Of a DNA stretch of 64,000 bases, positions 24,805 to 43,117 are shown piece by piece. A model generated the notes under the pieces. That model saw only the letters and a program-made list of their open reading frames with translations. It was not told the origin of the DNA and searched no databases. Position 1 is the first letter of the stretch. Every line of letters starts with the position of its first letter. A program made the translations under genes and the position numbers. Source of the stretch: Clostridia bacterium (GTDB lineage Bacteria; Bacillota; Clostridia; RGIG6154); the NCBI GenBank assembly GCA_017626145.1, contig JAGAJK010000045.1, positions 3,375-67,374 on the forward strand, given 5' to 3'.

Positions 24805-24838
24805 AAATTTAAGGATGAAAACAACAGGGAGGGATAAA

Positions 24839-25573
24839 ATGCTTAGTCAGTTTTCCAGAACAGAATTAATGTTCGGTAAAGATTCAACCCAAAAGCTTAA
24901 AGAATGTCGAGTGGCAGTATTTGGAATAGGCGGTGTAGGTGGAACAGTTGTAGAAAGCTTAGCACGAAGCGGAGTAGGAACAATTGATATAATTGATAAT
25001 GATACCGTTTCGCTTACCAACATTAACCGTCAGATTATAGCACTCAACAGCAATGTAGGAAAGTTCAAGGTTGACGTAATGGAGGAAAGAATTAAGGATA
25101 TTTGTCCCGATATTACCGTTAATAAATATAAATGCTTCTTTTTACCTGAAACCTCTGCAGAGTTTGATTTTTCTGTGTACGATTATGTTGTTGATGCCAT
25201 AGATACGGTTAAGGGTAAAATCGAAATAGTGGAAAAAGCAAAGCAGGCGGGAGCCAGGGTAATCTGTGCTATGGGTGCAGGAAACAAAACAGACCCGACC
25301 AAATTTGAAGTGACAGATATTTATAAAACTCATACCTGTCCATTGGCAAAGGTTATGAGAAGTGAACTGAAAAAACGTGATATAGAAAGCCTTAAGGTTG
25401 TATATTCTACTGAAAAGGCTGTTGAACCGGATGTGGCAGCATTGGATGAGTTTCTGAACGAGGAGGGTGCTTCAAAAAGAAGTGTTCCGGGTTCAAATCC
25501 CTTTGTTCCACCGGTATGCGGGTATATTATAGCAGGTGAAGTTATCAAAGATTTAATCGGGAAGGAATTTTAG
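24839..25573 (+). CDS. tcdA: ThiF/HesA-family adenylyltransferase, tRNA threonylcarbamoyladenosine dehydratase-like
   Basis: GIGGVGGTVVESLARSGVG Rossmann motif and NINRQ. ATG at 24839 behind GGGAGGG. The only TAG-terminated CDS I found in the window. Confidence 0.75.
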   Translation: MLSQFSRTELMFGKDSTQKLKECRVAVFGIGGVGGTVVESLARSGVGTIDIIDNDTVSLTNINRQIIALNSNVGKFKVDVMEERIKDICPDITVNKYKCFFLPETSAEFDFSVYDYVVDAIDTVKGKIEIVEKAKQAGARVICAMGAGNKTDPTKFEVTDIYKTHTCPLAKVMRSELKKRDIESLKVVYSTEKAVEPDVAALDEFLNEEGASKRSVPGSNPFVPPVCGYIIAGEVIKDLIGKEF

Positions 25574-25575
25574 TT

Positions 25576-26640
25576 ATGAGCAAAGCACTTATTGCGATGA
25601 GTGGCGGTATTGATTCTGCGGTTGCAGCATTACTTACAAAAAATAAAGGCTTTGAATGTATTGGTGCTACTTTAAGACTTGTTTGTAGCTCTGTTTTCGG
25701 CTTGCCTGCAGAAAATGATGAAAAAGTTGAAAATGATATTGCGGATGCAAAAAAAGTAGCAGAAAGACTTGATATGGTTCATAAAGCATATGACGCCGTT
25801 GACAAATTCAAAAAGTGTGTTGCTGATTATTTTGTGACTGCTTACGAAAAAGGTTTAACACCAAATCCCTGCGTGGTATGTAATAAGCTTATTAAATTCG
25901 GACTTCTGCTTGATATAGCAAAAGAGAATGAATGTGATTACATTGTAACAGGTCATTATGCCCGTATTGAAGAAAAAGATGGCAGATTTTTACTAAAGAA
26001 GGCTGTTGATGAAACAAAGGATCAGAGTTATTTTTTATATACTCTCTCTCAGTATCAGCTGGCACATTCATTATTTCCCTTGGGAGAAATGACAAAAGAA
26101 GAAGCAAGACTTTTAGCAGAGGAAAATGGGTTTGTGAATGCACGTAAGCGTGATAGCCAGGATATTTGTTTTGTACCTGATGGCGAATACGTAAATATAA
26201 TAGAGCACCTTACGGGGAAAAGCTATCCCGAAGGCGAATTCATTTCTCTTGACGGTAAATGCCTCGGAACACATAAGGGAATAATCCGATATACAGTCGG
26301 CCAAAGAAAAGGTCTTGGCATTTCTCTGTCAAAGCCTGCTTATGTAGTAGAAAAGAATGTGACGGATAATACTGTGGTTCTTGGTGATAATGAGGATCTA
26401 TTTACAGATACTCTGAGAACAGAAAGCTTCAATTGGATTATGTTTGATACACCACAGTCCAAAATTCGTGCGAAGGTAAAAATTCGTTATAATCATAAGG
26501 CTCAGTGGGCAACGGTTACCGCTTTAAATAATGGTGGTGTGGAGATTAAATTTGATGAGCCACAGCGTGCAATTGCAAAAGGACAGTCGGCAGTAGCATA
26601 TGACGGTGAATATGTTATAGGCGGTGGAATAATTATATAA
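25576..26640 (+). CDS. mnmA: tRNA 2-thiouridine(34) synthase
   Basis: 354 aa (AMSGGIDSAVAA PP-loop, TPNPCVVCN, KDQSYFL). Confidence 0.9.
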   Translation: MSKALIAMSGGIDSAVAALLTKNKGFECIGATLRLVCSSVFGLPAENDEKVENDIADAKKVAERLDMVHKAYDAVDKFKKCVADYFVTAYEKGLTPNPCVVCNKLIKFGLLLDIAKENECDYIVTGHYARIEEKDGRFLLKKAVDETKDQSYFLYTLSQYQLAHSLFPLGEMTKEEARLLAEENGFVNARKRDSQDICFVPDGEYVNIIEHLTGKSYPEGEFISLDGKCLGTHKGIIRYTVGQRKGLGISLSKPAYVVEKNVTDNTVVLGDNEDLFTDTLRTESFNWIMFDTPQSKIRAKVKIRYNHKAQWATVTALNNGGVEIKFDEPQRAIAKGQSAVAYDGEYVIGGGIII

Positions 26641-34697: not shown

Positions 34698-35426
34698 ATG
34701 TGTTTGGGTAAGAATTCTATTGAAAAATACGAAAAGTTTGCGTTTTTTATATCTGAAAATGCAGACCGATATAATGAATATGCAGATATTAATCCTGATA
34801 TGGGCGCGGATGAGGTTGTATGGCGTGTAAATAACAAACTGGATAAAGAAAGATATACATTTATCGAAGAAATTTTAAATGTCGATGATATATGTGTCTT
34901 AGTTAACAAATACTTTAAATTGCCTGATACTTTTGTACCCCATGAGCTTGTTGAATCTGACGGATTTCTGATGAGGAAAGAAGTAGCGGAAAGCTTTACT
35001 CTAATGCGTGATGAGGCGTTAAAGGAAGGTTATTGTCTTGAAATAGTCTCAGCGTATCGTTCAATACAAGAGCAAAAGCAGATATATGAAGAAAAACTTT
35101 TAAAGGATAAAGCGGAATTTATTGACGAATCCTGTGCCAGACCGGGACACAGTGAGCATCATACAGGTTTGGCTATAGATGTTGTATGGCCGGTTCCTGA
35201 AAATATGGAGCTTAGCCAAACACCTGAAACAGCCTGGGTAAGAGAAAACGGACCTCGCTTTGGTTTTATTGTTCGTTATTTGCCTGAAACAGTTGAAATA
35301 ACGGGTTATACATCGGAACCGTGGCATATGCGTTATATTGGTAAAGAAAAAGCTATTGATATGAAAGAAAAAAATATAAAAACTTTAGAAGAATATACAG
35401 AACGGTATCTTAAAAAACAAAAATAA
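34698..35426 (+). CDS. M15 family D-alanyl-D-alanine carboxypeptidase (VanY-like)
   Basis: SAYRS..EQ, SEHHTGLAIDV and EPWHMRYIG zinc-peptidase motifs. Confidence 0.85.
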   Translation: MCLGKNSIEKYEKFAFFISENADRYNEYADINPDMGADEVVWRVNNKLDKERYTFIEEILNVDDICVLVNKYFKLPDTFVPHELVESDGFLMRKEVAESFTLMRDEALKEGYCLEIVSAYRSIQEQKQIYEEKLLKDKAEFIDESCARPGHSEHHTGLAIDVVWPVPENMELSQTPETAWVRENGPRFGFIVRYLPETVEITGYTSEPWHMRYIGKEKAIDMKEKNIKTLEEYTERYLKKQK

Positions 35427-35438
35427 ATAACCTCAAAA

Positions 35439-35476
35439 ACAGATGGAGTGTAATTTTTTACATTCCATCTGTTTTA
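35439..35476 (+). terminator. intrinsic terminator after the VanY-like gene
   Basis: ACAGATGGAGTGT, an 8-nt loop, ACATTCCATCTGT, then TTTT (one G-U pair in the stem). Confidence 0.7.
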
Positions 35477-35502
35477 ATGCAGAAAAATAGACATTAAATT
35501 CC

Positions 35503-35531
35503 TTTACAAACACATAAAAATGTAGTATAAT
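35503..35531 (+). promoter_or_regulatory. sigma-A type promoter of the prfB operon
   Basis: TTTACA, a 17-nt spacer, then TATAAT. Two further TATAAT hexamers follow at 35532 and 35540. Confidence 0.55.
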
Positions 35532-35572
35532 TATAATGATATAATATTATTAAAAGTAAAGGTTGTGAGTAA

Positions 35573-36683
35573 ATGCTGGAATTTGATGAAATCAAGTTAA
35601 CACTTGAAGGCATGGAAAGCGGTATAAGCGAACTGAGGGATTCACTTTAGCATCGCTAAAACCGAAACAGAAATAGCAGAGCTTGAAGAAAAAACTACTG
35701 CGGCTGATTTTTGGGACGATATGGCGAACTCCCAGAAAGTACTGCAGAAAATTAAACAGCTTAAAGACAAGGTAGAAAAATATAAGAATCTTGAGCAAAC
35801 CCGTGAAGATTTGCTTGTTCTGGCTCAGATGGCAGACGAGGAAGAGGATTTGTCTGTACTTGATGAAATTAAGGACGGACTTAAAGAGCTTACTAAAAAT
35901 CTTGACGAAATGACTCTTGAAACACTTCTTTCAGGGGAATACGACAAGAACAATGCAATACTTACTCTTCATTCGGGAGCAGGTGGAACCGAGTCTCAGG
36001 ACTGGACTGAAATGCTTTACAGAATGTACACACGTTGGGCTGAAAAAAGAGGTTATACAGTAACAACTCTTGACTTTCTGGACGGCGATGAAGCAGGACT
36101 TAAAAGTGTTACCTTCCAGGTAAGCGGTGTTAACGCATACGGCTACGCAAAGGGTGAAAAGGGTGTTCACAGACTTGTAAGAATATCTCCTTTTGATGCG
36201 GCAGGCAGAAGACATACGTCATTTGCCAGCCTTGAAGTTATGCCTGAAATTGAGGACGACACAACTGTTGTAATCAATCCTGATGACTTAAGGGTAGATA
36301 CTTACCGTTCAAGCGGTGCAGGCGGTCAGCATGTTAATAAAACTGACTCTGCGATAAGAATCACTCATATTCCAACAGGTGTTGTTGTGTCTTGTCAGAA
36401 TGAACGTTCTCAGCATAAGAATCGTGAAACTGCAATGAAAATGCTTCGTGCTAAATTGGCAGAAATCTTAGAAAGAGAGCACAAAGAAAAGATTGACGAT
36501 ATTAAGGGTGAGGAAAAGGACATTGCCTGGGGCAGTCAGATTCGTTCTTACGTTTTCCATCCATATACAATGGTAAAAGACCACAGAACCAGCTTCGAAT
36601 CAGGTAATATCGGTTCTGTAATGGATGGCGAAATTGACGGATTTATTAATGCGTATCTAAAAATGAAAGCGACGGAAGAGTAA
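35573..36683 (+). CDS. prfB: peptide chain release factor 2, made by programmed +1 frameshift (join 35573..35647, 35649..36683)
   Basis: ORF0 is [25 protein letters not shown], ending at CTT TAG (35645-35650). The +1 frame continues [24 protein letters not shown] into the track ORF 35721..36683. SPF and GGQ motifs are present ([25 protein letters not shown]). Confidence 0.9.
35635..35651 (+). promoter_or_regulatory. prfB +1 recoding site (internal SD-like GAGGGA, slippery CTT T, stop TAG, 3' C)
   Basis: GAGGGATTCACTTTAGC read directly. Apart from the stop codon identity, it has the same architecture as the canonical AGGGGGnnnCUUUGAC site. Confidence 0.8.
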
Positions 36684-37756
36684 TGATAGAAAAACTTAAA
36701 GAGATTTATGACAGATTTGTTGAAGTTTCCGAAAAAATTGCATCACCTGAGCTTATAAGCAATCAGGATGAAATGACAAAGCTTTATAAGGAACATTCGG
36801 AGCTTACACCACTTGCGGATAAGTATCTTGAATATAAAAAGGCAGAGGAAACCGTAGAGGAAGCAACAATGATGCTTGAAGATGCTGATGACCCTGAGTT
36901 TAAGGAAATGCTTGAAGATGAATTAAGAGAAGCAAAAGAAAAGCTTCCTGTTATCTTAGATGAACTTAAAATAATGCTTCTTCCCAAGAATCCTGATGAT
37001 GATAAAAACGTTATTGTTGAAATCAGAGGCGGTGCAGGTGGAGATGAAGCGGCACTTTTCGGGGCTGATTTAATGAGAATGTATACCCGTTATGCAGAAA
37101 GAAATAACTGGAAAACGGAAATGCTTTCTTCTAATATTACCGATATGGGCGGTGTAAAGGAAGTATCCTTTTCATTGCAGGGAAAAAGTGCATATTCAAG
37201 ACTTAAATTTGAAAGCGGCGTTCACCGTGTTCAGAGAATACCAACCACCGAATCAGGTGGAAGAATTCATACATCAACGGTAACAGTTGCTGTTCTTCCC
37301 GAAGTTGAAGAGGTTGAAGTTGAGATAAACCCCAACGATTTAAGAATTGATGTTTTCCGTGCAGGCGGTCCGGGCGGTCAGTGCGTTAATACAACTGACT
37401 CTGCAGTAAGAGTAACACACCTGCCTACAGGTCTGGTTGTTTCCTGTCAGGATGAAAAATCTCAGCATAAGAACAAGGATAAGGCAATGAAAATCCTTCG
37501 TTCAAGACTTTTTGACCTGATGCAGGCTCAACAGCACGATGAGATTGCGAATCAGAGAAAGAATCAGGTAGGTACAGGCGACAGAAGTGAAAGAATAAGA
37601 ACCTATAACTTCCCACAGGGAAGAGTTACCGACCATAGAATAGGCTTGACACTTCATAAGCTTGATGCAGTTCTTGACGGAGATCTTGATGAAGTAATTG
37701 ATGCTCTGGTAACTGAAGATCAGGCTCAAAGACTTAAATCCCAGGAGGGAAAATAA
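36683..37756 (+). CDS. prfA: peptide chain release factor 1
   Basis: 357 aa. Has a PxT-type motif ([14 protein letters not shown]) and GGQ ([11 protein letters not shown]). The ATG overlaps the prfB TAA (TAATG). Confidence 0.95.
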
Positions 37757-39154
37757 ATGAAACTTGATGCTAAAAAGCTTCCTGTAATTACAACATTGAT
37801 AATAACATTAGTGATGATAATTACTTTGTTCGTTGTCCGTGCAGGTGTTGCGGATAACGGCAATCTGAGATATGTGCTTGAAGATATTGGTATGTACGAT
37901 TATCAGAGTGCTTCAGGCTCAGGCTATTATGCCGATGGCTTCGGAGTCAGCTCAAAAACTCTGGGAACAGGAACAGGCGGTCTTGTTTACGGTATAATTA
38001 AGCTGGCATTTCCTGTTGACAGTGTTATGTTTGTCTGGATTCCTGCAATTGTTTATTTAGCTGTTTTTGTTGCCGGTATATATCTTTTTCTTAAGAGTAT
38101 GATTGGCGAGAATAAAACTGTTAATATATTGATGTGTATACTTGCGGCAATTATAGTAGCTGATGCAGGATATGTTGCATTCTTTAATACTCCATATACG
38201 GAAGGTGCATTTATAGCGTATCTCGTTCTGTTTTGCGGTTCATTTGCAGCCTGTGCAAAAACAGGTAAAGTAAGATACCTTATTCTTTCGGGTATAGCAG
38301 GAATATTATTCGGAGCAACTGGTATCTATGCCTCACTTACAGGTATACTGCTTGCATTTGTGCTTCTCGGATTTATGAAAACAGAGGATATTAAGAAAAG
38401 AGTTATAGCTGTTTTAATGGCTGTACTTGTTTTTGCGGCATCTGTTTATGGCTTTACTATTGATAAATCAGGCGATGGAATGAAGTATAACCGTATTTTT
38501 TACGGAGTACTTTCTGTTTCTGAAAATGCAGAGCAGTCACTTGGTGATATGGGCATTGATAAAGAGTTTGCGCAGTACGCAAATACAGCAAGCTTTGATG
38601 AAAAAGCGCAGAATTTTATAGCTTCTCAGGATTTTGCAAAGGTCAGAGATAAAGCGGATACTTTTTCTGTGTTAAAATATTATTTTACCCATACGGATGA
38701 TTTTTCAAAGGCTTTGAAAGCCTGTGTTAACAACAGCACAATGATTAAATCCTCATATCTTGGTGATTATCCTGCATCAAGCGGAAAAGCAAGTCAGCAG
38801 AGTAGCTTCTGGACTATTTACAGTACTTTAAAGGCGAAGCTGATGCCTGCATCGATGGTGTTTATTCTTGTTTTTGCATTAGCTGTTTTGGTTTTATCTC
38901 TTTCATACAAGGGTAAACACAAAGATAAGCAGGGAACCGCTCAGATGGTGTATTTGCTTATAGCACTTGCTTTGGGTGCAGTTCTTACATTGCCTTTAGC
39001 AGTTGTACAGAACGGTTTATCTCTTATTGATTTTAATATGCGTTCGTATAATTTCTTATTTGATTTATCACTCTTCGGCGGTGTAACCGGCGGCGTTAAT
39101 ATGATGCTCAGCCGACAGCAGGAGCTTCGTGATAAATACGGAGTAAATCAGTAA
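37757..39154 (+). CDS. polytopic membrane protein of unknown function
   Basis: 465 aa, roughly 9-11 hydrophobic helices plus a soluble segment of about 110 aa. The ATG directly abuts the prfA TAA. Confidence 0.6.
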   Translation: MKLDAKKLPVITTLIITLVMIITLFVVRAGVADNGNLRYVLEDIGMYDYQSASGSGYYADGFGVSSKTLGTGTGGLVYGIIKLAFPVDSVMFVWIPAIVYLAVFVAGIYLFLKSMIGENKTVNILMCILAAIIVADAGYVAFFNTPYTEGAFIAYLVLFCGSFAACAKTGKVRYLILSGIAGILFGATGIYASLTGILLAFVLLGFMKTEDIKKRVIAVLMAVLVFAASVYGFTIDKSGDGMKYNRIFYGVLSVSENAEQSLGDMGIDKEFAQYANTASFDEKAQNFIASQDFAKVRDKADTFSVLKYYFTHTDDFSKALKACVNNSTMIKSSYLGDYPASSGKASQQSSFWTIYSTLKAKLMPASMVFILVFALAVLVLSLSYKGKHKDKQGTAQMVYLLIALALGAVLTLPLAVVQNGLSLIDFNMRSYNFLFDLSLFGGVTGGVNMMLSRQQELRDKYGVNQ

Positions 39155-39786
39155 TGGCTATGAACGATTATAAACAAATGACAGACAACGACCTTGTTCT
39201 TCTTGCACAGGATGGAGATAATGGTGCAATGGAAGAGCTTATAGGAAAGTATAAGAATTTTGTGAAATCAAAATCAAGAACCTATTTTCTTATCGGAGCA
39301 GACCGTGATGATATAATTCAGGAGGGTATGCTCGGACTTTTTAAAGCAATCCGTGATTATAAGGCGGATAAGCAGGCGTCATTCCGTTCTTTTGCGGAGC
39401 TGTGTGTTACAAGACAGATGATAACTGCAGTAAAAACAGCTACAAGACAAAAGCACACTCCTCTTAACAATTACATTTCGCTGAACAAACCTGTTTATGA
39501 GGATGAGACGGAGCGGACTTTAATAGACCATCTTAGTATGCGTCATAATTCCGACCCTGAGGTAATACTTATCGACAATGAGAATTATACTGTTACCAAC
39601 GAAAAAATAAAAAGTATGTTAAGCCGTTTTGAATACGAGGTTCTGGAGAAATATATAAACGGTCAGTCTTACAATGAAATCGCCGTTATTATGGATAAGT
39701 CTCCTAAAAGTATTGATAATGCTTTGCAGAGAATAAAGAAAAAGGTTTTAAAGTGTCTTGAAGAAATGAAAGGAAAAGGCGTATGA
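39154..39786 (+). CDS. sigH: RNA polymerase sporulation/stationary-phase sigma factor SigH
   Basis: 210 aa. Near-collinear with Bacillus SigH as I remember it (YFLIGADRDDIIQEGMLGLFKAIRDYK...FAELCVTRQMITAVKTATRQKHTPLN...KSIDNALQRIKKK). Confidence 0.9.
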   Translation: MAMNDYKQMTDNDLVLLAQDGDNGAMEELIGKYKNFVKSKSRTYFLIGADRDDIIQEGMLGLFKAIRDYKADKQASFRSFAELCVTRQMITAVKTATRQKHTPLNNYISLNKPVYEDETERTLIDHLSMRHNSDPEVILIDNENYTVTNEKIKSMLSRFEYEVLEKYINGQSYNEIAVIMDKSPKSIDNALQRIKKKVLKCLEEMKGKGV

Positions 39787-40586
39787 ACACAGAAAAAAGC
39801 AGTTGTAGTTTACTAAGAAGCATTGAACAATGTGTAAAAGGCGTTATGGAGTCGTACGCATATAATGAAGTAATTCATACTTACGGAAATGATACTGACA
39901 ATGCAGTTTGCGATATTATATTATCCGAAATAACCGATGAAATTCTTCCGGTACGAATATACTCAAGTATGATAAATAATTCGGTTATGGTTTCTGCAAT
40001 TTGCGGCAGCGACAGTTCAAAGGCGGCAGCTGAACAGGTTGCACTTATGATAAATGCTGTGCTTGGAAACGGAATTGAAAAAATTTCCGTTAAGCTTGGA
40101 AATACAGAAAAATGGGATAATGTAAAAGAGCATCTGGATAGCTACGGATATACAAAATATCTTGACGGTGATGCAAAGCTCGGCTTTGACGGATTTATGG
40201 GTGTCTCGGAAAACGAAAAACTTATCTTTGAAGGCTTTGCTGTAGAATTATCGGGAAAGAAATGTCTCTACAGTAAAATCCATATGGATGTGCTGATGGA
40301 TTTACTTTCTCATAATGCACAGCCTGAAAGTAAGCTTCTTCCTGTTGCATTGGTTGCATCGGACGAATCATCTTTATCCTTTAGTGTAGCATTGGGGCTT
40401 CGCAGTCAGGGCTTGAAAATTGAAGAATATACAGGCACGGGAAGTATGATCGAAGCTGAAGAATATGCTGAGCTTAAAGGCATAACGATTCTTTTGTGGA
40501 TAAGCGGAAATACCGTTATGATGAAAAATTTAAAGAACGGTGAGAGAAGTGAAACCACAGTAGATAAATTATTACAGAATAAGTAA
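39783..40586 (+). CDS. truncated class II aaRS (HisRS/HisZ)-like protein with an anticodon-binding-like C-terminal domain
   Basis: 267 aa. The ATG overlaps the sigH TGA (ATGA). The C-terminal 100 aa (LPVALVASDE...ALGLRSQGLKIEEY...ILLWISGNTVMMKNLKNGERSETTVDKL) resembles the HGTP anticodon-binding fold. The catalytic core is largely absent. Confidence 0.45.
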   Translation: MNTEKSSCSLLRSIEQCVKGVMESYAYNEVIHTYGNDTDNAVCDIILSEITDEILPVRIYSSMINNSVMVSAICGSDSSKAAAEQVALMINAVLGNGIEKISVKLGNTEKWDNVKEHLDSYGYTKYLDGDAKLGFDGFMGVSENEKLIFEGFAVELSGKKCLYSKIHMDVLMDLLSHNAQPESKLLPVALVASDESSLSFSVALGLRSQGLKIEEYTGTGSMIEAEEYAELKGITILLWISGNTVMMKNLKNGERSETTVDKLLQNK

Positions 40587-40588
40587 TT

Positions 40589-40613
40589 AAAAGGAGCTTT
40601 CAGGCTCCTTTTT
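40589..40613 (+). terminator. intrinsic terminator ending the prfB-sigH gene string
   Basis: AAAAGGAGC-TTTCAG-GCTCCTTTTT. Confidence 0.65.
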
Positions 40614-40627
40614 AAATAAGGTGGATT

Positions 40628-41449
40628 ATGAATACTGAAATAATGAACATAAATAAAAAAGAAAATGTTGTATTCCTTACATTCAAAGAGCTTGAAAAAT
40701 ATGATTTTTTAAAGCATGCCGTTTCAACACGTCACGGAGGAATTTCCAATAGTGAAAAAACGTCTTCAATGAATCTTGGACTGAAAACGGATGATTCTGT
40801 TGAAACGGTAAAAGAAAATTTCAGGATTTTTTGTAATGCAACAGCTTTGAATTACAACAATATAACGCTTGCAAATCAGACACACAGTACAGGTATTCGT
40901 ATTATAACCAAAGAAGACGTAGGCAAAGGGCTTCATATTCAAAGGGATTATAACGATATTGACGGCATAATTACCAATCTTAAAGATGTACCGCTGATGA
41001 TTCATACGGCAGATTGTGTTCCTGTTATTTTTGCAGATGTGAAAAAACAGATTATAGGTGCTGCACATTGCGGATGGAAAGGAACATTTGAAAGCCTTTC
41101 TGTGAAAATGGCAGAAAAAATGAAAGCCAAATTTAACTGCAGGTATGAAGATATAATTTGTGGTATAGGAACAGCAATAGGTGTGTGCTGTTATGAAGTG
41201 TCAGAAGAACTCTATTGTAAGTTTAAAGACCGTTTTTGCGATTTTGAAGAAGCTTTTGAAATAAGAGAAGAAAAGTATTATCTGAACTTAAAGCTTTTAA
41301 ATAAACTACAATTAGAAGGTGTAGGCGTACCAAGCAGAAATATATCAGTCTGTGACATTTGTACAAAATGTAACAGCGACGAATTGTTTTCTCACCGTGC
41401 TTTAGGTGACGGCAGGGGAATGATAGGTACGTTTGTAAGCCTTAAATGA
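40628..41449 (+). CDS. pgeF: peptidoglycan editing factor PgeF (YfiH/DUF152 family)
   Basis: 273 aa (NQTHS, DGIIT, TADCVPVIF, AAHCGWKGT motifs). Confidence 0.88.
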   Translation: MNTEIMNINKKENVVFLTFKELEKYDFLKHAVSTRHGGISNSEKTSSMNLGLKTDDSVETVKENFRIFCNATALNYNNITLANQTHSTGIRIITKEDVGKGLHIQRDYNDIDGIITNLKDVPLMIHTADCVPVIFADVKKQIIGAAHCGWKGTFESLSVKMAEKMKAKFNCRYEDIICGIGTAIGVCCYEVSEELYCKFKDRFCDFEEAFEIREEKYYLNLKLLNKLQLEGVGVPSRNISVCDICTKCNSDELFSHRALGDGRGMIGTFVSLK

Positions 41450-41452
41450 AAT

Positions 41453-41487
41453 AACGCAGTTTGCAATCAGCAAACTGCGTTGTTTTT
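41453..41487. terminator. bidirectional intrinsic terminator
   Basis: AACGCAGTTTGC-AATCA-GCAAACTGCGTT-GTTTTT, between convergent pgeF and araB. Confidence 0.8.
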
Positions 41488-43117
41488 AAAGTTCATTAAG
41501 TTTTTTCATTATGTGTCTGTGAGTTTCACCAAAAAGAACGGACAGTTCCTTATAAACAGAATATAGCTTTTCATAAGCTTTGGTATTTTCTTTTATAGGC
41601 GTGTAAATATGCCGAGGATAGTTACACAAAGCTTTTGTTGCTTCTTCATAGGTTTTATAATATCCACAGGCACAGGATGCAAGGACTGCGCTTCCTTTTG
41701 CACCTGCCTGAGGAATATCAGGAACAATAATTTTTTTGCCGATAATATCTGCATACAATTGCATCAGAAAGCTGTTTTTCTGAGAAATTCCACCGGTTGC
41801 ATATATTTCTTCAATTTCGATTCCGTTACTTTCATACAATTCAATTATAGACCTTGTTCCGTAAGCGGTGGACTCTAACATAGCACGGTATATTTCTTCC
41901 GGCTTTGTTTGTATATTAAGACCTATTATTGCACCTGTTAAATCGTAATCTGCATATGGTGTTCTGTTTCCGTTCCACCAGTCAAGTGCTATAAGATGAT
42001 TTTCACCGATTTTAAGTGCAGATGCCTTAGAGTCAAGATATTCAAAAATATTTTTACCGAGTGCATTTGCTTCGTTAATGTATCCGGCAGGAACTATATT
42101 TTCAATAAACCAGTTAAAAGAATCGCCAACACAAGCCTGACCTGCTTCATATGCCGTATATCCCGGCACAATACCGTCCTCAACACTTCCGCAAATACCT
42201 TTGACAGGTATATTTTTTTTGCTCATTACAATATGGCAGGAGGATGTTCCTAAAATAAGCATCAGCTTTTTATCACTTATACCTGCTGCAGGCAAAGATG
42301 CGTGTGCGTCGATTATCGGAACGGCAACGATAGTTTCTTTACTAAGTCCCGTAAGCGAAACTCCGTGTTCACTTAATGTTCCTGCTTTCGAACCCGTAGG
42401 TAATACCGTATCTAAAAGCTTTGTGCCCGCAAGATTTTTAAATTTGGGTGTTATTTTGCTTAAAAACTCAGATGATGGGTACCCTGATTGTTTATTCCAC
42501 ATCCCTTTATACCCGGTAGTACAACTGCTGAGAACATTGTTGCCTGTAAGAAGTATTGTAAGCCAGTCTGCAGCTTCGATGAAATAGCAGGCTTTTTTGT
42601 AAACATCAGGTGCTTTTCTTAATGTTTCAAGTATTTTCGGAATCATCCATTCCGAAGACACCTTTCCGCCATAGCTGTCAAGCCACACCTGATTATGCTC
42701 TTTTGCAAGAGTGTCAATATAATCTGCTTCATCCTGTGCAGAATGATGCTTCCACAGCTTAGCATATGCCTGCGGTTCTGTTTTAAATTCATCTTTAAAA
42801 CAAAGAGGGACAGCATTTTCATCAACAGGGAGCATAGTGCAGGATGTAAAATCTATACCAATACCAACAATATCATTTACATTGGTTTCTGATTTTTTAA
42901 CGATATCCCTGATTGTGAAGGAAAGAGCATCAATATAGTCCTGAGGATGCTGAAATGCCGAATTTTTATCAACAGGAGTACCACAGGGGAGAGTTATATC
43001 CATAACCTTATGAGGATATTTGAACTCACTTTCTGCAACAGTATTTCCGTTATCGAGATTAATAAGTATTGCTCTTGCGGAAAGCGTACCGTAATCTATA
43101 CCTATACAATATTTCAT
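41486..43117 (-). CDS. araB: ribulokinase (FGGY family)
   Basis: Collinear with Bacillus AraB as I remember it (IGIDYGTLSARA..., KLWKHH, LDWWNGNR, GGI..KN). ATG at 43117, 9 nt after AAGGA, preferred over the track's TTG at 43126. Confidence 0.85.
   Translation of the reverse strand: MKYCIGIDYGTLSARAILINLDNGNTVAESEFKYPHKVMDITLPCGTPVDKNSAFQHPQDYIDALSFTIRDIVKKSETNVNDIVGIGIDFTSCTMLPVDENAVPLCFKDEFKTEPQAYAKLWKHHSAQDEADYIDTLAKEHNQVWLDSYGGKVSSEWMIPKILETLRKAPDVYKKACYFIEAADWLTILLTGNNVLSSCTTGYKGMWNKQSGYPSSEFLSKITPKFKNLAGTKLLDTVLPTGSKAGTLSEHGVSLTGLSKETIVAVPIIDAHASLPAAGISDKKLMLILGTSSCHIVMSKKNIPVKGICGSVEDGIVPGYTAYEAGQACVGDSFNWFIENIVPAGYINEANALGKNIFEYLDSKASALKIGENHLIALDWWNGNRTPYADYDLTGAIIGLNIQTKPEEIYRAMLESTAYGTRSIIELYESNGIEIEEIYATGGISQKNSFLMQLYADIIGKKIIVPDIPQAGAKGSAVLASCACGYYKTYEEATKALCNYPRHIYTPIKENTKAYEKLYSVYKELSVLFGETHRHIMKKLNEL

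Follow-up and report, generated by a model that had tools for sequence, protein, structure and literature searches.

A UAG stop in the prfB frameshift site of Clostridia prfB-prfA operons points to recoding that senses release factor 1

The prfB gene of a gut-type Clostridia bacterium, whose product is release factor 2 (RF2), carries a +1 frameshift site whose in-frame stop codon is UAG. The gene lies in a stretch of 64,000 nucleotides (nt) of contig JAGAJK010000045.1 (assembly GCA_017626145.1, positions 3,375 to 67,374 of the forward strand), which we refer to as the window. Frameshifting in prfB is a textbook case of autoregulatory recoding, and its logic needs a sensor stop that RF2 reads; UAG is read by release factor 1 (RF1, the product of prfA) alone and UAA by both factors. 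The site belongs by anatomy to the prfB frameshift family and lacks the RF2-cognate stop that defines the family. It is conserved in relatives, has arisen repeatedly, is accompanied by release factors with canonical decoding motifs and is restricted to operons in which prfA follows prfB. Judged from Escherichia coli reporters, RF1 most likely sets the shift efficiency here, and we lean, with some reserve, towards an adaptive loop in which an RF1-sensing UAG frameshift would feed back on the prfB-prfA operon. The elements concerned are listed below (ORF, open reading frame; SD, Shine-Dalgarno; aa, amino acids).

35573..35650, + strand: prfB ORF0, 25 sense codons and an in-frame TAG
35635..35640, + strand: internal SD-like GAGGGA, 4 nt 5' of CTT
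35645..35651, + strand: shift site CTT TAG C, with the slippery CTT-T, TAG at 35648-35650 and a 3' C
35649..36683, + strand: prfB +1-frame ORF, Ser26 to Glu369, followed by TAA at 36681-36683
36681..36685, + strand: TAATG, where prfB stops and prfA starts in overlap, likely a point of translational coupling
36683..37756, + strand: prfA, encoding RF1 of 357 aa (NF001859, 543 bits against a cut-off of 400)

An earlier sequence-only reading had described this site, and its description agreed with ours when the sequence was read again. ORF0 ends in CTG AGG GAT TCA CTT TAG C, the part from AGG to the final C occupying 35636-35651, and the canonical elements (GAGGGA at a distance of 4 nt, CTT T and the 3' C) are all in place. 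In the +1 frame, a TGA at 35634 within the SD-like CTGAGGG is followed by an open frame from 35637 to the TAA at 36681-36683; the first +1-frame codon used is AGC (Ser) at 35649, and the FWDD motif sits 5' of the first ATG of that frame (35721), both as claimed. Joining ORF0 and its CTT to this frame gives a protein of 369 aa that scores 537.3 bits against the NCBIfam prfB model TIGR00020 (cut-off 370), and the alignment crosses the junction in one piece (residues 13-363 on positions 3-353 of the 353 in the profile). The joined protein is a full RF2. In relatives that have no frameshift, such as locus L002 with MIEFEEIKLSLEGMKSGMEELRDSL, the unshifted RF2 begins with an N-terminus homologous to the peptide encoded by ORF0. 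The site therefore shows the split RF2 coding sequence, the CUU-U with a 3' C and the upstream SD-like element of the canonical prfB +1 programmed frameshift motif, but its in-frame stop is TAG and not one cognate for RF2 (UGA or UAA). What it shows in full is the anatomy of an RF1-sensing frameshift window, a type familiar to date just from engineered assays, namely CUU-UAG-N, an upstream SD-like element and an RF1 with intact PxT and GGQ motifs. Because the decoding determinants of RF2 are canonical, a shift that falls as RF2 activity rises is predicted to be absent here. No Rfam family matched anywhere in the window, which is without rRNA, and RNA folding was unremarkable both at the shift site (z = -1.75) and at the prfB/prfA junction (z = -0.49), so a stimulatory RNA structure or known RNA family was rejected.

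To place the site among its relatives, prfB was scanned in one genome per GTDB species, which gave 80 related loci, and the window (WIN) was added to them. The loci fall into four classes.

CTTTAG class, 7 loci: prfA directly downstream in 7, none within at least 1.2 kb in 0, too little sequence in 0
CTTTAA class, 16 loci: prfA directly downstream in 14, none within at least 1.2 kb in 1, too little sequence in 1
CTTTGA class, 33 loci: prfA directly downstream in 2, none within at least 1.2 kb in 27, too little sequence in 4
No-frameshift class, 25 loci: prfA directly downstream in 2, none within at least 1.2 kb in 20, too little sequence in 3

CTTTAGC is carried by six species-level GTDB genomes and twelve metagenome contigs, and this recurrence rules out a chance occurrence of the CTTTAG site. 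The contigs came from an exact-pattern scan for GAGGGATTCACTTTAGCAT with 15 matches, 12 of which are prfB sites; the other three (L081, L087, which is identical to it, and L094) lie outside prfB and were discarded as chance matches, about the number expected for a 19-mer. An incomplete locus (L082) and a low-coverage, chimera-like one (L089) were left out of use. The latter, an ERZ1034065 contig of 1620 nt with a coverage of about 2, has an ORF0 that matches the L014 type without a difference as far as the cassette around the site, is L083-like immediately 3' of the site, and encodes a downstream RF2 that is just ~63% identical to that of any TAG lineage. Assembly has probably fused two sequences at the invariant cassette here, and the locus is not counted as a lineage of its own. 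The named relatives are Clostridia placed by NCBI in Oscillospiraceae (Ructibacterium and Congzhengia), and the genome closest to the window is that of L001, 'Clostridia bacterium SGB_2602'.

A neighbour-joining (NJ) tree of the single gene for RF2, bootstrapped with 200 replicates, separates the TAG sites. Lineage A comprises the window and L001 and groups with the TGA loci L003 and L004 and the no-frameshift locus L002 (support 0.91). Lineage B, hereafter clade B, holds five species-level genomes together with metagenome contigs (support 0.99) and lies inside a TAA clade, one member of which is the cultured Ructibacterium gallinarum DSM 107454. Lineage C consists of L083 and L086, from metagenomes only. 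Monophyly of all TAG loci appeared in 0/200 bootstraps, and RF2 sequences share 83-95% identity inside clade B and 63-73% across TAG lineages. The tree thus gives at least three TAG lineages of independent origin, and tabulation of the stop over related prfB sites, a check that the sequence-only reading had called for, finds TAG beside TAA, TGA and no-frameshift loci. Locus L002, a no-frameshift relative of the window, reads TTG AGG GAT TCG CTT AAC, which is CTT-TAA-C minus one T and points to a TAA ancestor for lineage A also. Since clade B lies inside a TAA clade and L002 retains CTT AAC, TAA would be the intermediate between TGA and TAG, each step being a single transition, and the residue read after the shift would pass from Asp through Asn to Ser. 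A cassette of 20-21 nt, including GAGGGA, is invariant in the genome-derived TAG loci, whereas 14-19 of each 21 flanking columns vary; it also matches the genome-derived TAA and TGA relatives base for base except at the stop, again between variable flanks. In the metagenome loci the invariance of the cassette holds by construction, as they were found with the pattern. A separate CTTTAA lineage (L053 and L054) has GGGGGA as its SD-like element. In L054 the 1.2 kb downstream contain no prfA, so TAA can arise unlinked to it; the flank of L053 is too short to judge.

The class of the stop is closely associated with the gene that follows. In every TAG locus prfB is directly followed by prfA. Among the genome loci that can be judged, this arrangement is found in 7/7 TAG and 14/15 TAA loci compared with 2/29 TGA and 2/22 no-frameshift loci, and the difference between TAG plus TAA (21/22) and TGA is strong when kinship is ignored (Fisher p = 4.6e-11). 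In the window, prfA overlaps the prfB stop as TAATG at 36681-36685, as had been noted before, and the only SD-like sequence for prfA is a weak and closely spaced GGAAGAG at 36674-36680. The two genes are on the same strand, prfA directly downstream, with overlapping stop and start and neither promoter nor terminator between them, as in an operon, and the sequence makes translational coupling from prfB to prfA likely. An overlapping (TAATG) or 2-nt junction is present in 5/10 TAG loci (WIN, L001, L006, L012 and L083, which represent all three lineages) and in none of the 16 linked TAA, TGA and no-frameshift loci, which have spacers of 11-97 nt with AAGGAG-type SDs. With kinship ignored, this gives a Fisher p of 0.004, or 0.010 when WIN and L001 are counted as one event. 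Tight junctions with TAG only are what one would predict if RF1 synthesis has to depend on the shift for a UAG sensor to work.

From these data we propose a mechanism. In lineages where prfA came to adjoin prfB downstream on the same mRNA, the sensor codon of a functional prfB +1 site would have switched from UGA to UAA and then to the RF1-specific UAG. Ribosomes would translate 25 codons and then pause, the P site occupied by CUU and the A site by UAG-C, where RF1, and not RF2, would compete with the slip of peptidyl-tRNA-Leu onto UUU, a slip that contact between GAGGGA and the anti-SD would promote. With RF1 plentiful, the 25-residue peptide would be released; with RF1 scarce, the ribosome would shift, read AGC as Ser and complete RF2. 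Ribosomes ending prfB at UAAUG would re-initiate on prfA, whose own SD is poor, and negative feedback would close on RF1, RF2 following in a proportion that the coupling determines. As to its history, the prfA fusion would first have tied RF1 output to prfB translation, an RF1-readable sensor (UAA, then UAG) closing the loop; a UAG loop, which closes through RF1 alone, would then have favoured tighter coupling. The proposed dependence on RF1 is well grounded in the canonical RF2 and RF1 motifs and in work on E. coli, where a prfB frameshift window changed from TGAC to TAGA or TAGU still shifts and prfA mutants with normal RF1 amounts show a termination/shift ratio lowered about 10-fold (PMC2680264). 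The RF1 loop would bring a regulatory benefit. The full account would make this the first natural RF1 autoregulatory circuit, with a sensor repeatedly retuned from UGA through UAA to UAG after prfA fusion, a junction tightened to UAAUG, and one RF1-sensing event that governs both class-I release factors and possibly a gene run containing sigH; we hold the chances for and against this whole account to be evenly balanced.

Several points weigh against an adaptive RF1 loop. Leaving RF2 without feedback of its own seems risky, and RF2 overproduction is toxic in Bacillus subtilis (PMC12421855); a second, unshifted prfB elsewhere in these genomes is possible. The other five of the 10 TAG loci have spacers of 25-33 nt with an SD-like sequence before prfA, which may let them make RF1 in part regardless of the shift, so coupling is not uniformly tight. 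The association tests ignore phylogeny, involve few independent events and lean on a single-gene NJ tree. Finally, the organisms are uncultured, and the case is built on sequence comparison and analogy with E. coli.

The stop may alternatively have changed under relaxed constraint. Once a single mRNA yields both RF1 and RF2 in a constant proportion, the activity of the one or the other would report operon output, and the sensor stop could drift neutrally from TGA to TAA to TAG; RF1 would still set the shift, but TAG would be unselected. The near confinement of non-TGA stops to prfB-prfA-linked lineages is consistent with such drift, as are the coexistence of three stops and frameshift loss among close relatives and the ordinary spacers with SD kept by half of the TAG loci. 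Drift would not, however, readily account for TGA being the minority among linked frameshifting loci (2/23), which looks directional, for tight junctions occurring with TAG only, or for the persistence of TAG throughout a clade that numbers at least five species, and a change from TAA to TAG would oppose the AT mutational bias expected at 37-49% GC. We consider neutral drift unlikely, though it deserves a serious hearing.

Stop codon usage bears on another possibility, de-repression, in which a TAG-poor genome would keep RF1 scarce and UAG-C would act as a 'hungry' stop, with the shift always near its maximum; RF2 would then escape autoregulation and rise without deletion of a T. For ORFs of at least 100 aa, the window has 53 TAA, 10 TGA and 1 TAG stops (n=64). 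TAG is thus rare here (1/64 against ~13% in related loci, binomial p = 0.0014), as the sequence-only reading had noticed, and the other 63 stops are readable by RF2. The rarity did not clearly extend to the other TAG lineages, where 7/74 stops are TAG (p = 0.24 against ~13%), and TAG avoidance was dropped as a general correlate of TAG sites, being seen in the window only and unsupported in the pooled other TAG loci. That the tcdA gene alone uses TAG was borne out with a qualification: the sole TAG-terminated ORF of at least 100 aa (24815-25573) is TcdA-like at 148.5 bits, under the equivalog cut-off of 304. It ends in TAG-T, a strong context (25571-25576), and the ATG of the next gene follows 2 nt on. 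De-repression gains some plausibility from the loss of autoregulation in relatives, which is common (25 no-frameshift loci) and tied to high RF2 demand (PMC12421855). Yet the other TAG lineages are not evidently TAG-poor, and deletion of the T is an easy and repeated route to constitutive RF2 (L002, L005) while TAG lineages keep the cassette invariant. De-repression also leaves the exclusive ties to prfA linkage and tight junctions unexplained, and we judge it improbable.

As to which factor can read the UAG, SPF, the alpha-5 GGTE/A tip and GGQ are all retained in RF2, as are PxT (P-T-T in the window) and GGQ in RF1. This is true of all site classes and upholds the earlier statement that both proteins have normal decoding motifs. 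RF2 changes that enable termination at UAG are E167K, E170K, E172K, K177R, D329A/G and A293E (PMC7530605). RF2 positions were mapped with E. coli RF2 as a ruler, all landmark residues of which proved correct. TAG-class RF2 has D167, D/A/E170, D/E172 and K177, as in the TAA, TGA and no-frameshift relatives, and its residues at 167, 170, 172, 177, 293, 294 and 329, in SPF and at the alpha-5 tip are those of the other classes; no Lys at 167, 170 or 172 and no known UAG-reading substitution was found in TAG-class RF2. It could be argued that RF2 of the TAG lineages has broadened and terminates at UAG itself, which would preserve classical RF2 autoregulation, since single changes such as E167K suffice for UAG activity (PMC7530605). 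With decoding positions unchanged from those of relatives, RF1 retained with intact PxT and GGQ, and omnipotent RF2 variants misreading UGG at a cost (PMC7530605), we regard a broadened RF2 as very improbable. The GGQ loop of RF1 (37310-37360) is unusual in the window and in L001-L005, with Pro before GGQ and Cys after it where other RF1s and RF2s read SGAGGQH; this variant is group-wide and not specific to TAG.

The TAG itself is authentic. The 320-aa gene-caller product of this prfB is encoded on 14 contigs from separate samples, and in eight independent assemblies of this strain (L096-L103) from eight samples and two pipelines (4 ENA, 4 Logan) the 151-nt leader is identical to that of the window, CTTTAGC included. 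The identity of CTTTAGC in 8/8 assemblies rules out a sequencing error and settles the earlier concern that TGA had been miscalled as TAG. Public gene calls (L096-L105) start prfB at Met 35721 and miss ORF0. Read-through of the TAG is unproductive, as it would meet a 0-frame TAA three codons on; no tRNA genes were found in the window, and a suppressor tRNA or pyrrolysine read-through was rejected on both counts. The first +1-frame ATG is not conserved, standing at residue 50 in the window and at 42, 82 and 113 in other TAG lineages, and the +1 frame cannot be entered from the 5' side, where a TGA sits 4 codons before the site. With read-through unproductive, upstream entry blocked, the internal Met unconserved and ORF0 homologous to unshifted RF2, sequence comparison makes the +1 shift the sole conserved way to RF2 from this gene, in line with the earlier claim that the protein must start at 35573 and shift. 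That TAG is an error, prfB a pseudogene or RF2 an unshifted product of Met 35721 is therefore hardly credible, even though automatic gene callers give just the 320-aa ORF, because TAG stands not only in the eight assemblies but in multiple species and metagenomes, the full RF2 with its canonical motifs is clearly under purifying selection, and ORF0, the drifting ATG and the blocking TGA all tell against it.

The prfB-prfA pair may belong to a longer transcription unit, for which the further features are as follows.

35440..35475, + strand: terminator-like hairpin and T-run, CAGATGGAGTGT..ACATTCCATCTG then TTTT; low confidence, the consensus scan being without it
35503..35531, + strand: promoter-like TTTACA-17-TATAAT, 11/12, a consensus match only
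37757..39154, + strand: WsfD/YfdI_N-like membrane protein, downstream of prfA
39154..39786, + strand: sigH, a sporulation sigma factor, third gene after prfB
39783..40586, + strand: unknown ORF of 267 aa, overlapping the end of sigH

The promoter-like sequence upstream of prfB is the best match across 35300-41600. The consensus scan gave no + strand promoter match of at least 9/12 between 35573 and 36683, and no convincing + strand terminator in 35300-41600 before ~40589-40612 (~40.6 kb). With low confidence, the hairpin may close the upstream VanY-like gene and isolate the prfB transcription unit. The three co-directional genes after prfA (37757..40586) follow with gaps of 0 nt or less (37756/37757, 39154 and 39783-39786), and the WsfD/YfdI_N-like gene, sigH and the 267-aa ORF are probably in the same transcription unit as prfB-prfA. 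If they are co-transcribed, the prfB shift could reach sigH expression via polarity or coupling. On the other side, prfB of the window is preceded by genes for a VanY-like carboxypeptidase and a GH94 phosphorylase. The usual Firmicute gene order is secA-prfB, and a SecA-type C-terminus (…KYKKCCG*) lies directly 5' of prfB in L002, L011, L020, L027, L046, L050, L055 and L071, so the prfB neighbourhood has been rearranged in the lineage of the window.

Adjacent prfB and prfA also resemble each other locally in clade B. In L006, L009, L010, L012, L014, L016, L021, L023 and L041, RF1 and RF2 of the same locus are 80-93% identical over 30 aa of the GGQ domain, compared with 50-63% in the lineage A group, and an S/A variant in YR[SA]SGAGGQ co-varies in both clade B paralogues. 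Third-position identity between the two genes is not raised overall (52-68% vs 58-70%), and identical runs of 23-27 nt are present. Short-tract gene conversion between the adjacent paralogues could have produced this likeness.

Prince et al. (mBio 2025, PMC12421855) surveyed 12,753 PGAP-annotated RefSeq representative genomes and found the motif in 8,164, with 98.6% TGA, 1.4% TAA and no TAG, and took the absence of TAG as proof that the motif universally autoregulates RF2. Their RefSeq set excludes metagenome-assembled genomes (MAGs), and all TAG lineages described here are MAGs or metagenome contigs, so the survey missed them. That paper does not discuss prfB-prfA linkage (the word 'operon' is absent from it), and the text of its supplement gave no match to Ructibacterium, Congzhengia or CTTTAA. 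No natural UAG prfB site turned up in the full-text literature that was searched, including a 2026 paper on loss of prfB autoregulation in Molecular Biology and Evolution; most subscription journals lay outside that scope, and an older mention is possible. The TAG lineages are a counterexample to the universal logic of the 2025 survey and, if the RF1 loop is true, would undo the recent general claim that RF2 autoregulation is all that the prfB motif serves. They offer a concrete system for RF1 self-control, which is not known in any bacterium: Lalanne et al. (2021) stated that, to their knowledge, no RF1 autoregulation had been reported (PMC8073009). How a regulatory sensor can pass between paralogues is illustrated by the fusion of prfB with prfA and by their tightened coupling. 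For annotation, pipelines shorten these prfB genes to 320 aa, and frameshift-aware callers that need TGA or TAA miss them. Synthetic biology and work on recoded genomes would also find in the cassette a natural RF1 sensor ready for use.

The nearest known systems share parts of this arrangement. The canonical CUU UGA C prfB frameshift was reportedly described by Craigen and Caskey in 1986, and Baranov et al. are said to have surveyed prfB frameshifting in 2002. Like the canonical site, the present one has an ORF0 of ~25 codons, an internal SD-like element, CUU-U, a 3' C and a +1 ORF that encodes the rest of RF2, but its stop is UAG, which RF2 does not read, and feedback of RF2 on RF2 cannot operate. 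Natural CUU UAA C sites, its evolutionary neighbours here, have likewise departed from UGA with the cassette otherwise intact; UAA is still readable by RF2 and RF2 feedback persists, whereas UAG removes it. UAG-substituted prfB windows were reportedly used as assays of RF1 activity by Curran and Yarus in 1989 and by Poole et al. in 1995. In the engineered UAG windows of Diago-Navarro et al. (2008, PMC2680264), as here, a +1 slip at CUU-U competes with termination at UAG-N, but those are artificial E. coli reporters with TAGA or TAGU, while the present site is natural, with UAG-C in a native prfB upstream of prfA. Elliott proposed in 1989, as summarised in PMC2680264, that RF1 controls itself in Salmonella and E. 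coli via the weak UAGC stop of hemA before prfA. That idea also places UAG-C directly before prfA and has low RF1 send more ribosomes to prfA; it differs in being a hypothesis only and in invoking read-through of an unrelated gene, where the present site uses a frameshift. In plants, eRF1 is reported to be autoregulated by stop-codon read-through and nonsense-mediated decay (PMC5397192), so that there, too, the mRNA of a termination factor carries a recoding signal that reports the factor's activity, although that system is eukaryotic, has one omnipotent factor, and acts through read-through and the decay of mRNA.

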